A stretch of 64,000 nt of DNA. Origin: Eledone cirrhosa (taxonomy: Eukaryota). Of this stretch, positions 47,028 through 60,400 are shown piece by piece. The stretch is from contig OZ024749.1 in NCBI GenBank assembly GCA_964016885.1, positions 16,864,001-16,928,000 on the forward strand, given 5' to 3'. A program made the position numbers and the translations under genes. The notes beneath the pieces were generated by a model, which worked only from the letters and a program-made list of their open reading frames with translations, was not told the origin of the DNA and searched no databases. Positions within the stretch are counted from its first letter, which is position 1. Each line of letters begins with the position of its first letter.

Positions 47028-47835
47028 CAAAAGTTCTATTTAAAGTTGTTGGGATACAACAAGTAAATATTTTTATAACTGATATAAAGCACTCGACAAG
47101 ATTTTGGAGTAGATATACGATATTAATAAATGGAAACTATATTTATAAAACCATATTTATTTCATTATACATATTTCAGGGATACCACATTAAATTATGG
47201 TATGCCTTCATCAGACAAAATACAATATATAACAGTTTTACAAATAGCTTTGACGTATCCTTTCAAAATGCAACCATTACTTTTAACATTTTCTTTCCAT
47301 CGCACATATTATTAAACCTTTAAATATTATTCTTAATACATATTAACATTTTCTTTTCATCGCACATATTATTAAACCCTTCAATATACAAACCTTAACT
47401 TTACATTATTTTTCTCTTCGTTAATTTTCAAATTCTTTTAATTTATACATTATCTTCCAACGGTTTTTCAACCTCTCTATGTAAAACAATATATTTTTCT
47501 CAGTTATAAAAGCTATCTCTCTCTCTCTATCACCCATCTCTCCTCCTATCTCACCCTTCCTCATTATACTCCTCCCCCTCCACTTTTTACTCTCATCTCC
47601 TCCTCTTTTTCACCCCCCCCCCCTCAAACATTTTTTTCCCCAATATCACACATCAATCTAAAACTACTTTTCATATGTTGATTTAAAACTGCACTATTCA
47701 CAAGTGTTTTTTAACCTTCATATCATGTCTTCCTATTTTATCTGATGAAAACACAAATATTATTGCATGATGATATTTGTTTTTGAAATGCGCATAATAA
47801 AATACATGGAACTCTTTTAACCATCTTTTGATCTT
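47028..47835. mobile_element. Head-to-head chimera: family G tail (-) joined to family M tail (+)
   Basis: 47028-47270 matches the reverse complement of 17160-17375; 47280-47835 matches the 59890-60400 region. (TA)n on both sides. Confidence 0.8.
47734..47804 (+). ncRNA. Type I hammerhead ribozyme, canonical core (family M)
   Basis: TATTTTAT-CTGATGA-AAACACAAATATTATT/GATGATATTTGTTTTT-GAAA-TGCGC-ATA-ATAAAATA. Copies at 60292-60362 (+), 62976-63046 (-) and 63168-63238 (+, G12C). Confidence 0.82.
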
Positions 47836-48454
47836 ATATATTATATATATATATATATATATATATATATATATATATATATATATATATATATATATAT
47901 ATATATATATATATATATATATATATATATATACACATATATATATATATATATATATACATATATATATATATACATATATATATATACATATATATAT
48001 ATGCATATATATATATATATATATACATATATATGTATATATATATATGTATATATATATGTATATATATATATGTATATATATATATATGTATATATAT
48101 ATATGTATATATATATATATATGTATATATATATATATATATGTATATATGTATATATATGTATATATATATGGATATATATATGTATATATATATGTAT
48201 ATATATATGTATATATATATGTATATATATGGCCATACTCGATAACGAGGGGCAGCCATTATATATATGTACATATATATATATATGTATATATATATAT
48301 GTATATATATATATATATGTATATATATATATATATATATATATATATATATATATATATATATATATATATATATGTATATATATATATGTATATATAT
48401 ATATATATATATATATATATATATATATATATATATATGTATATATATATATAT

Positions 48455-49223
48455 ATATAAAGAAAAAGAGATGAAATCGAAAATGCAACTGAAGTCTTAT
48501 TTTTTTTTTAAATATATATATTTATTTGGTTCCTTTACCGGTTTCGCAGTTCTTCTGCTTTTCAAAAGGTGAGTTGAGATGGAGGGTCTGTGGTTTTTCT
48601 CACATCTGGTTGGTCTCTGAATGTTACTTGTTTTATATGGAAAAAGTGGCTCGAAATTCCAGGTTTTTCGAGAAGTAATTTGATTGGTTTGTCAATAATT
48701 ATAATAAATTTCGCGCCAGTTCGCGTTACAATAGTTCTTCAAATAAGAGAGGGGGGGGGGGGGTTGTCACAGGTTGTTTTTTCATATATGAGTGTTTGAA
48801 TTTCTTTTTACTTGAAACAAAGAGGCTCACGAAGGCTTTTAAAAAAAAAAAGCCCTCGTGAGCCTCTTTGTTTCAAGTAAAAAGAAATTCAAACACTCAT
48901 ATATGAAAAAACAACCTGTGACAATCCCCCTCTCTTATTGAAGAATTATTGTAACGCGAACTGGCGCGAAATTTATTATAATTATTGACAAACCAATCAA
49001 ATTACTTCTCGAAAAACCTGGAATTTCGAGCCACTTTTTCCATATAAAACAACTAACATTGAGAGACCAACCAGATGTGAGAAAAACCACAGACCCTCCA
49101 TCTCAACTCACCTTTTGAAAAGCAGAAGAACTGCGAAACCGGTAAAGGAACCAAATAAATATATATATTTAAAAAAAAATAAGACTTCAGTTGCATTTTC
49201 GATTTCATCTCTTTTTCTTTATA
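48455..49223. repeat. ~770-bp fold-back palindrome of the family N tail, centre ~48845
   Basis: The arms are near-perfect reverse complements. Confidence 0.92.
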
Positions 49224-57196: not shown

Positions 57197-57456
57197 CAGG
57201 GCGGTGTGTCTTTCAGTGAAGGTTAAGCTCTACCGGAGGGAACTGAATAAGCAAGATGTATGGTAGGTCGTACGTATATCGCGATGATCACGCCTGACCT
57301 ACCAAATATTCGACGGTAGCTAGTTAAGCTCTATGCGTATAAGCAGAGCAAAAATATTAATGAAAAGAACAAAGGAACTATTATGACATTATAACAAGTT
57401 ATTACCGACAGCCGTTTCGTCCGACCATAAGGTGGGACTTTCCAAGGCATATAACA

Positions 57457-59140
57457 TGTATATATATATATATATATATATATATATATATATATATATC
57501 TATATATATATATATATATATATATATATATATATATATATGTATATATATATGTATATATATATATATATATATATATATATGTATATATATATATATA
57601 TATATATATATATATATATATTATATATATATATATGTATATATATATATATATGTATATATATATATATGTATAATATAATATATATCTATATATATAT
57701 ATGTATATATATATATGTATATATATATATGTATATAATATGTATATATATATATGTATATATATATATATGATAATAAATAATATATATATGTATATAT
57801 ATAATATATTATATATATATATATGTATATATATTATAATATATATATATATATATATATATATATGTATATATATATATGTATATATTATATATAATAT
57901 GTATATTATATATGTATATATATATATATATATATATATATATATATATGTCATATATATATATATATATGTATATATATATATCTATATATATATATCT
58001 ATATATATATATGTATATATATATGTATATATATATGTATATATATATATGTATATATATATATGTATATATATATATATATGTATATATATATATCTGT
58101 ATATATATATATATATATATATGTATATATATATATATATATATATATATATGTATTATATATGTATATATATATATGTAATATATATATGTATATATAT
58201 ATATATGTATATATATATATATATATATACATATATATATATATACATATATATTATATATATATATATATATATATATATATATATATATTATATATAT
58301 ATATGTATATATATATATATATGTATATTATATATATTATATTATATATATATATCTATATATATATATGTATATATTTATATGTATATATATATATGTA
58401 TATATATATGTATATTATATATGTATATATATATATATGTATATTATATATATGTATATATATATTTATGTATTATATTATATTTGTATTATATATATTT
58501 ATATTATATATATTTATATATATATATATGTATATATATATGTATATATATATATATATATGTATATATATATATGATATATATATATATTATATATATA
58601 TATATGTATATTATATATATATGTATATTATATATATTATATATATATATGTATATATATATATGTATATATATATGTATATATATAAGTATATATATAT
58701 GTATATATATATATGTATATATATATATATATTATATAATATATATGTATATATATATATTATATATATATATGTATATATATATATATATATATATATG
58801 TATATATATATGTATTATATTATAAGTATATATATATATGTATATAATATATATGTATATATATATATATAATATATATATTATATATAAATTATATATA
58901 TATAATATATTATATACTATATATATATATATAGATATATATATACATATATATATATACATATATATATATATACATATATATATATACATATATATAT
59001 ATATACATATATATATATATTTACATATATATATATATACATATATATATATATATACATAAATATATATATATACATATATATATATATATACATATAT
59101 ATATATATATACATATATATATATACATATAATATATATA
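57457..59140. repeat. Degenerate (TA)n tract
   Basis: Direct reading of the sequence. Confidence 0.96.
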
Positions 59141-60400
59141 CATGTAAGTATGTATGTATACGTACATACATATATGTATACAGACGTACAGTAGCATGCA
59201 TATATATATATATATATATATAATATATATATATATATATATATATATACATACAGGTACACATACATATATGCACGCATCAGTTTAGCGGACGCTTATT
59301 ATAACGCCGCTTTGTTCGTTTGTAAACAAACTGAACAGCCTGAATTTATGCCATACGGTGTTAAGGCAACCATGTCACCTTTTTGTTCAACACTGACACA
59401 GGAACGATGTACTAGTTTCAAGCTTGTTAGCTATCATCAGCACCGTATACCCATCTGCAAGATAGTTGAACGTTCGAAAGTATATACTTGAACAGTTCTC
59501 TATCTAAAATCTGCAATCTCTGTCTAAATGAAAAATTTACCATTATCTCTAATCTAGATTCTATAATAAATAGACGCACTGACTTGTTTTCTATCTGCTT
59601 GCATAAATTCCATAAAACATTTCACAAAGTATACAGCTAATATTCAATTCTTTATCAATTAGAATCTTTTTCTCAAAGGCACAATATATACACTTCTTTT
59701 AAAAATATACCCATCTTTCTACCTTATTTCAAAGGTTATTATACATTCTATAATACTTGTTTACTCATTACTCTTACTCTATATCACCTTGTAAAAATCC
59801 TTCGTAAACATATACATTTTTTGACGCTAGATTATTCATTCATCAATTCATTATTCTTTTCTCCCTATCATCTAACTCATTATTCTCAATACATATTAAC
59901 ATTTTCTTTTCTTCGCACATATTATCAAATCCTTCAATATACAAACCTTAACTTTACATTATTTTTCTCTTCGTTAATTTTCAAATTCTTTTAATTTATA
60001 CATTATCTTCCAACGGTTTCAACCTCTCTATGTAAAACAATATATCTTTCTCAGTTATAAAAGCTATCTCTCTCTCTATCACCCATCTCTCCTCCTATCT
60101 CATCCATCCTCATTATACTCCTCCCTCTCCACCTTCACTCTCATCTCCTTCTTTTTTTCATCCTTTCCACCCACCCCCTCTAAATAAAATATTTTTCCCA
60201 ATATCACACATCAATCTAAAAGTACTTCTCATATGTTGATTTAAAACTGAACTATCCATAAGTGTTTTTTAACCTTCATATCATGTCCTCCTGTTTTATC
60301 TGATGAAAACACAAATATTATTGCATGATGATATTTGTTTTTGAAATGCGCATAATAAAATACATGGAACTCTTTTAACCATCTTTTTTTCTTATATATT
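59140..60400. mobile_element. Head-to-head chimera: family K unit (-) joined at ~59488 to family M PLE 3' part (+)
   Basis: K sequence runs to TATATACTT, then GAACAGTTCTCTATC (GIY-YIG C-terminus), the UTR and an HHR. Confidence 0.82.

Follow-up and report, generated by a model that had tools for sequence, protein, structure and literature searches.

In parts of two papers, Penelope-like elements (PLEs) that carry an endonuclease (EN+), both Neptune and Penelope/Poseidon, are described as having a tail on one side only and as inserting together with a 5'-truncated copy of themselves in inverted orientation (PMC8557442, PMC3846280). Self-priming or endonuclease resolution is proposed there for the inverted copies, and their origin, with that of the one-sided tail, is named an open question in passages of PMC8557442 and PMC11167929. 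For PAc, a Poseidon element of Anolis, sections of the latter work report that both strands are cut and extended in vitro, that reverse transcription begins at two internal sites that delimit the tail and that a dimer was modelled; no difference in start site between the strands was reported, and pairing within one molecule is not thereby addressed (PMC11167929). In the twin priming of L1, copying of a single RNA is primed from two DNA ends (Ostertag and Kazazian 2001, as cited in a passage of PMC10191854), and the bridges formed by synchronous L1 insertions, in the part of that study considered here, are head to head and have two 3' ends, with two poly(A) tails, from two RNAs (10.1101/2024.08.27.596794). 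Here, a stretch of 64,000 nt from the octopod Eledone cirrhosa (the window; GenBank assembly GCA_964016885.1, contig OZ024749.1, positions 16,864,001 to 16,928,000, forward strand, numbered below from its first letter) is analysed, in which PLE and retrozyme-like families are fused head to head with members of other families and with copies of themselves.

The surrounding genome measures 3.0 Gb and the window consists of islands separated by (TA)n arrays. An earlier note on this DNA had claimed three mixed-family junctions and a probable fourth, and all four are present as direct head-to-head fusions with no TA at the junction: G/M at 47283, K/M at 59489, K/L at 33796 and A/U at 25521. Orientation was assigned from the hammerhead core (M, G and K, by eye for K), from the open reading frame (ORF; M and L) or from the TA-ending of other copies (A and U). 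The G arm (47028..47284, minus strand) represents a PLE family by its 3' end, truncated on the 5' side; it contains a minimal hammerhead at ~47140-47225 and stops within (TA)n at the downstream terminus (long, L-type). The M arm joined to it (47283..47833, plus strand) holds a Neptune-like PLE 3' untranslated region (UTR) and hammerhead and ends at an upstream (short, S-type) terminus; the arms overlap by 2 nt, TT being common to both, and target arrays lie at 46580..47027 and 47834-48460. In K/M, the K arm (59140..59489, minus strand) is part of a ~470-517-nt tandem hammerhead unit with an inner TA tract and a terminus called 'a', and the M arm (59488..60392, plus strand) comprises the GIY-YIG C-terminus, the 3' UTR and a hammerhead with its core at 60300 and has an S-type terminus. 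The overlap is again 2 nt, TT in both arms, and the pair stands between a (TA)n-rich array at 57449..59139 and an array at 60393-60750. K/L joins a K multimer of ~2.7 tandem units (32412..33796, minus strand, terminus 'a') to a 5'-truncated Neptune-like PLE (33796..36925, plus strand, S-type terminus) whose ORF is interrupted by stops; one nucleotide is in common, and TGCA lies at the same place in other L copies. The A arm (25086..25521, minus strand) belongs to a TA-anchored family and has an L-type terminus, as does the U arm here (25522..26160, plus strand). This partner, previously taken as unknown and as ending at 26090, is a two-terminus, multi-copy family with its true end at 26160, directly followed by a short interspersed element (SINE; 26160-26358) that resembles the octopus OK SINE. 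The further claim that (TA)n lies outside both 3' ends holds for G/M and K/M, but U abuts the SINE and the right flank of L has only ~6 TA units.

The junction strings of G/M and K/M occur once each in the 3.0-Gb genome, and for this reason an amplified composite element as their source was rejected. The two halves of each pair are at similar distances from their nearest copies, namely 1.9% for G and 3.0% for M, 0.9% for K and 1.4% for M, 1.1% for K and 1.8% for L, and 6.2% for A (five copies) and 3.3% for U.

Insertions outside the window were sampled as the first listed matches per family, their 5' junctions being classed from maps and sequence, so that the orientation counts refer to these loci and not to the whole genome. 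The anchors are young copies, since they were chosen as exact motif matches, of which the genome holds 10,314 for K, 3,354 for G, 2,656 for M and 52 for L. The 54 K insertions comprised 34 same-family and seven mixed head-to-head pairs, two tandem fusions and 11 one-armed insertions, the partners in the mixed pairs being the 3' end of an RTE long interspersed nuclear element (LINE) in three cases, family J in two, family S in one and a G-like arm in one. Among 75 M insertions, 15 of them classed by match coordinates alone, there were 62 same-family and three mixed head-to-head pairs, two tandem fusions, four one-armed and four other insertions; the 23 for G gave 18 same-family pairs and one join to a Helitron, with four left unclassed, and 20 of the 52 L loci gave 12 same-family pairs and three one-armed insertions, with five left unclassed. 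Once the nine unclassed cases are dropped, the 163 resolved insertions amount to 126 same-family and 10 mixed head-to-head pairs, four mixed tandem fusions, 18 one-armed and five other insertions, and mixed pairs thus make up 10/136, or ~7%, of head-to-head insertions. The match lists alone contain, among near opposite-strand pairs, 23 head-to-head and no tail-to-tail arrangements for M and 14 against one (1.8 kb apart) for K. An island-end census, not used as the main count, was made over the window and its flanking 800 kb (the 864-kb neighbourhood, with 395 TA arrays) and found 168 of 215 islands half-annotated, 39 with the same family at both ends and eight with different ones. In curating these lists, L230 was reclassified from mixed head-to-head to tandem, L088 and L091 proved to be a single insertion entered twice, the F34/F49 and Z/RS contacts in the 864-kb list were artefacts of library overlap, and a SINE in the centre of the L195 pair was set aside as a later insertion on account of its target duplication.

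Every family has an upstream and a downstream 3' terminus at TA, ~55-100 nt apart (for M at ~+88 and +185 from the hammerhead core; spacings of 92 nt in G, 64 in H and ~86 in U), and K has three. The two termini of a same-family pair are unlike in all 60 pairs in which both ends could be called, out of 165 pairs from seven families, and by position in 30/30 M pairs. Examples in the window are the control pairs M(-)/M(+) at 62950..63360, with one S and one L terminus, and K(-)/K(+) at 37795..38208, with non-nested arms and termini c and b. The S arm extends further 5' in 20/30 M pairs, equally far in seven and less far in three (P=0.0005), and in 10/30 the L arm consists of the tail only, without any overlap with the S arm. 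In most K pairs the arms are non-nested, and K arms are frequently multimeric on both sides. Overlapping same-family arms are usually of one haplotype: arm-to-arm divergence is 0.022 in M against 0.042 to other copies (27 comparisons, several rows of which come from L243 and L228), and 0.021 in K against 0.044 (33 rows, 13 without a difference). The K rows include two seemingly divergent K/K pairs that proved to be pairing artefacts spanning adjacent insertions. Junctions show 1-2 nt of microhomology or templated inserts. Opposite segments of one RNA, staggered or non-overlapping and joined by microhomology, are what twin priming leaves, and the tail-only arms and common haplotypes have this form. 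Because same-family arms mostly share a haplotype and use complementary start sites, we infer one RNA with two primers; because a fold-back copy must nest in its template and 20/30 M pairs are non-nested, fold-back of one cDNA is not the rule.

These observations lead us to a reading to which we give a probability of about 0.55, namely that each of the two DNA ends acts as a primer, as a rule at one of two fixed sites in a single RNA, and that mixed pairs form on two RNAs copied together. A PLE reverse transcriptase (RT)-endonuclease dimer would cut both strands of (TA)n, copying from one DNA end would begin at S, the upstream site, and from the other at L, the downstream one (the 'tail'), and the trailing RT would either halt within the tail or displace the first cDNA, giving overlapping arms. 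The two cDNA 3' ends would then be joined by microhomology end-joining. In ~7% of head-to-head pairs the cDNAs may come from different ribonucleoproteins (RNPs), the second being that of a further PLE, of a retrozyme or of an RTE LINE; this could happen at a single break or at two synchronous breaks close to each other, and the S/L coupling would then be lost. We regard it as an even bet that programmed twin priming of this kind is the PLE default, a dimer assigning the two ends of a (TA)n cut to a pair of fixed start sites in a single RNA, which would explain the inverted copy and the one-sided tail, with ends caught by different RNPs, even across clades, yielding a two-RNA chimera in one event.

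The earlier note had read the mixed pairs as support for independent priming at both ends of one break over self-fold-back, on two RNAs. Its double-ended priming is well supported, though mostly by the same-family pairs and not by the chimeras, and its two RNAs are needed for the mixed minority (10/136 head-to-head pairs) but do not extend to a general rule, since same-family arms mostly share a haplotype and use complementary start sites. In the general form of that view, every head-to-head pair, same-family ones included, would derive from two independent RNAs, which fits the seven of 30 M pairs whose arms overlap fully to the same 5' point, and the arms from two subfamilies at L243 and L136. 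An independent choice of start site should nevertheless give like termini in about half of the pairs, whereas 60/60 called are unlike, and tail-only arms stop short of the S arm while arms are mostly of one haplotype; we therefore consider this general form improbable, and a variant in which an asymmetric two-RNA dimer is fed from one locus possible. Self-priming or fold-back of one cDNA or antisense template, after the model given in a passage of PMC3846280, would make the inverted arm and leave the chimeras as later accidents. It draws some support from the 5' hot spots on short palindromes in M and G, from short fold-back pieces at the junctions of L177, L243 and L232, and from the S/S pair at 24621-24985, and is possible for junction fillers. 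As a general rule it is contradicted by the non-nested arms, since 20/30 M pairs hold sequence absent from the other arm, in both directions, and most K pairs are non-nested, and we hold it very unlikely.

For the mixed pairs, the strongest competitor in our estimation, although still unlikely, is sequential fusion, in which a new one-armed insertion lands in the (TA)n next to an older pair, and the far DNA end, once resected through TA and the near arm, is joined to the new cDNA by microhomology. One-armed insertions do exist (18/163), as do joins to unrelated DNA (five) and tandem fusions (four anchored, and the four-part fusion described below), and the random S/L pairing in mixed pairs fits. 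A null of simulated one-ended insertion and resection over the actual 864-kb neighbourhood, however, predicts more tandem than head-to-head joins (head-to-head share 0.25-0.47, against 10/14 seen; P=0.0004-0.06) and, for the 34 non-homotypic cases, 9-19 joins to other DNA, against five observed; moreover, the copies fused to young anchors are younger than those that occur incidentally (mean percentile 0.34, n=9, P=0.044; 0.33 over 16 arms). Termini in mixed pairs, called by eye with K 'a' counted as S, are like in five and unlike in five, from which it follows that the arms come from independent complexes. A swap of partners between twin-primed insertions that arise synchronously at two different breaks, the bridge marking a deletion, inversion or translocation, accounts for an S/L rule lost in mixed and kept in same-family pairs, has a precedent in tumour L1 as far as the relevant part of 10.1101/2024.08.27.596794 describes it, and would be helped by the density of TA arrays in the neighbourhood. 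It requires two active families spatially close in one cell, and we rate it as doubtful; one break and two synchronous breaks with swapped cDNA ends both fit the mixed pairs. Passive deletion between adjacent pairs, or an error of assembly, appears least credible, along with general fold-back. The instability to be expected of palindromes in TA arrays favours it, but deletion should favour tail-to-tail contacts, of which nine across families were found, several being element-in-element insertions (L135, L205, L228) and L233 a true fusion, and K/K inverted joints are present in raw reads of another sample.

Several points weigh against two-site priming with two-RNA mixed pairs. Mixed joins are mostly head to head (10 against 4 anchored), but not exclusively so: cross-family tandem fusions number four among the anchors, two in the window and ~3 in the flanking 800 kb, and with window and flanks added the ratio becomes 14 to 9 (P=0.0003-0.14). 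The repeat library behind the null is incomplete, and all four mixed pairs among PLE-like families in the 864 kb are those of this window, whose families seeded that library. The partner-age test uses short spans and is weak; synchrony is likely for the two-RNA cases, yet it has to be inferred, since no empty or half-filled allele was read, and in public runs from another sample no K-M joint was found among 15 of 97 joints listed, contigs there breaking at TA and repeats. Two same-family pairs have, by eye, like termini (G at L187/L188 and P at 24621-24985, S/S), the L arm is the longer one in three M pairs, and common haplotypes could also reflect two RNAs of one source locus or conversion within the palindrome.

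The four-part fusion P(-)/M(-)/M(+)/Q(+) at 2419..6576 is a counter-example to a head-to-head-only rule: its M inversion has lost both native termini, and P closes it on the left and Q on the right, both reaching TA with their 3' ends. The two tandem cross-family joins could be template jumps or sequential replacement. A further tandem fusion, T/RTE1, lies at 63559-63597. In the M pair at L243 the arms come from two subfamilies (7/162 different) and enclose a mosaic templated insert, and L136 (2464-4251) is a two-tailed RTE LINE pair with arms 89% alike, each having relatives of 97-98% elsewhere. Both are cryptic two-template pairs and count in favour of two templates in the mixed cases. Ends of RTE-clade LINEs were seen as two-tailed head-to-head pairs in TA arrays at this locus and at L134:379-578, and RTE1 copies that have one tail and end in TA, with inversions of the classic twin-priming type, lie at window-relative -31314 to -30576 and 87607-89415.

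The preferred reading carries some consequences. S/L pairing and non-nested arms exclude simple fold-back and predict that the two DNA ends use different RNA start sites in vitro, and the mixed pairs suggest that an insertion begun by one retroelement RNP can be finished by that of an unrelated one. Breakpoints of rearrangements may also be marked by these pairs, and exact K motif matches in this genome exceed 10,000.

The families themselves are of known kinds. L had been taken for a Naiad, a PLE group defined, in the relevant passage, by a GIY-YIG endonuclease N-terminal to the RT (PMC8557442). Its translation, read by eye, runs from the RT (FDI and YRDD motifs) through a CxC..CP..C linker to a C-terminal GIY-YIG (YIGST..KRWY.H), and because the endonuclease is C-terminal, that identification does not hold. 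M represents the 3' portion of a Neptune-like element with RT, zinc-finger linker and C-terminal GIY-YIG; by eye, both L and M have the Neptune arrangement of an RT followed by a C-terminal GIY-YIG with CCHH, and a CX2-5CxxC-type zinc-finger linker (CNC..CP...C in M and the same in L, its last position being X at a stop). A Pfam search of L and M gave no RT or GIY-YIG match, and both are placed as Neptune-like PLEs by domain order and linker alone. A motif scan for a minimal type I hammerhead in the pseudo-long terminal repeat (pLTR) was positive for G and M, and M occurs as a pLTR-ORF-pLTR tandem with a 3534-nt period at L221; with their predicted hammerheads, M and G have the canonical PLE hammerhead and tandem-pLTR organization, although the hammerhead monomers fold no better than shuffled sequences. 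K, whose core escaped the scan and was found by eye, consists of non-coding units of ~470-517 nt in tandem with one predicted hammerhead in each, as in non-LTR retrozymes, and is thus retrozyme-like. More hammerhead tandem arrays, with periods of ~628 and 467 nt, lie in the neighbourhood from window-relative 370147 and -140163 onward. The 5.9-kb island at 51527-57448 carries direct terminal repeats of 87 nt and has RT-like similarity to the L region.

Other islands of the window include a Penelope/Poseidon-like ORF (RT and GIY-YIG) at 2995-4812, two APE-RT LINEs, a Helitron-like PIF1 helicase at 43233-46576 and many short families, recurrent as inverted pairs; at L161 and L200 the 5' end of a PLE arm is joined directly to Helitron-like sequence. 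To the left of the K multimer in K/L, the T2-family arm at 31611-32337 has its 5' end joined directly to a TA array, as a one-armed insertion, and ~6 TA units after the L 3' end stands element N (36929-37742), whose direct terminal repeat measures 116 nt and which carries a CTGATGA motif. At 50033-51307 a 1-kb duplication (49072-50283 repeated at 50075-51307) with S/U fragments and TA arrays may be a tandem duplication or an assembly repeat. Hot spots of 5' truncation on short palindromes (M at 60231 and 47673 in the window; G at loci L181-L210) may mark a pLTR transcription start or a preferred joining site. Iterative templated insertions were found at the junctions of L177, L179, L220 and L243, which resemble polymerase-theta end-joining, and the K(-)/K(+) pair at L131:3570-4160 has an unrelated ~52-nt tandem repeat at its centre, a similar 200-nt insert being present in L227.

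The component parts of the mechanism are already known, namely Neptune PLEs, a retrozyme and twin priming. A literature search over main texts, in which most subscription journals were not covered, found no report of S/L pairing or of cross-family head-to-head PLE pairs, nor was the pattern met in the passages considered of PMC10191854, PMC9977147 and 10.1101/179705. With EN+ PLEs, as characterized in the parts of the literature cited at the outset, the insertions described here share the head-to-head inverted copy, pseudo-LTR tandems, hammerheads, microsatellite targets and one-ended tail, but differ in a tail of ~55-100 nt against 30-40, in a near-absolute, counted coupling of tail and no-tail arms, in non-nested arms and in cross-family pairs. 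Two start sites bounding the tail, an AT-rich target and extension on both strands are common to PAc in the sections of that work drawn upon, and the two-site priming suggested here matches, by analogy, that in vitro finding. With L1, according to the passages cited above, they have in common the priming of two DNA ends on one RNA, microhomology-joined cDNAs and head-to-head two-RNA bridges, whereas the second primer uses spurious internal sites in L1 and a fixed second site here. The twin-primed form is here the majority outcome (126/163) and the arms can overlap. The chimeras, unlike the L1 bridges, are found in an assembled genome and across retroelement families. Finally, K resembles the non-LTR retrozymes, as presented in part of 10.64898/2026.07.22.740005, in its non-coding units of ~0.5 kb, which are repeated in tandem and each contain a type I hammerhead, while K multimers stand head to head with staggered termini and are fused to other families.

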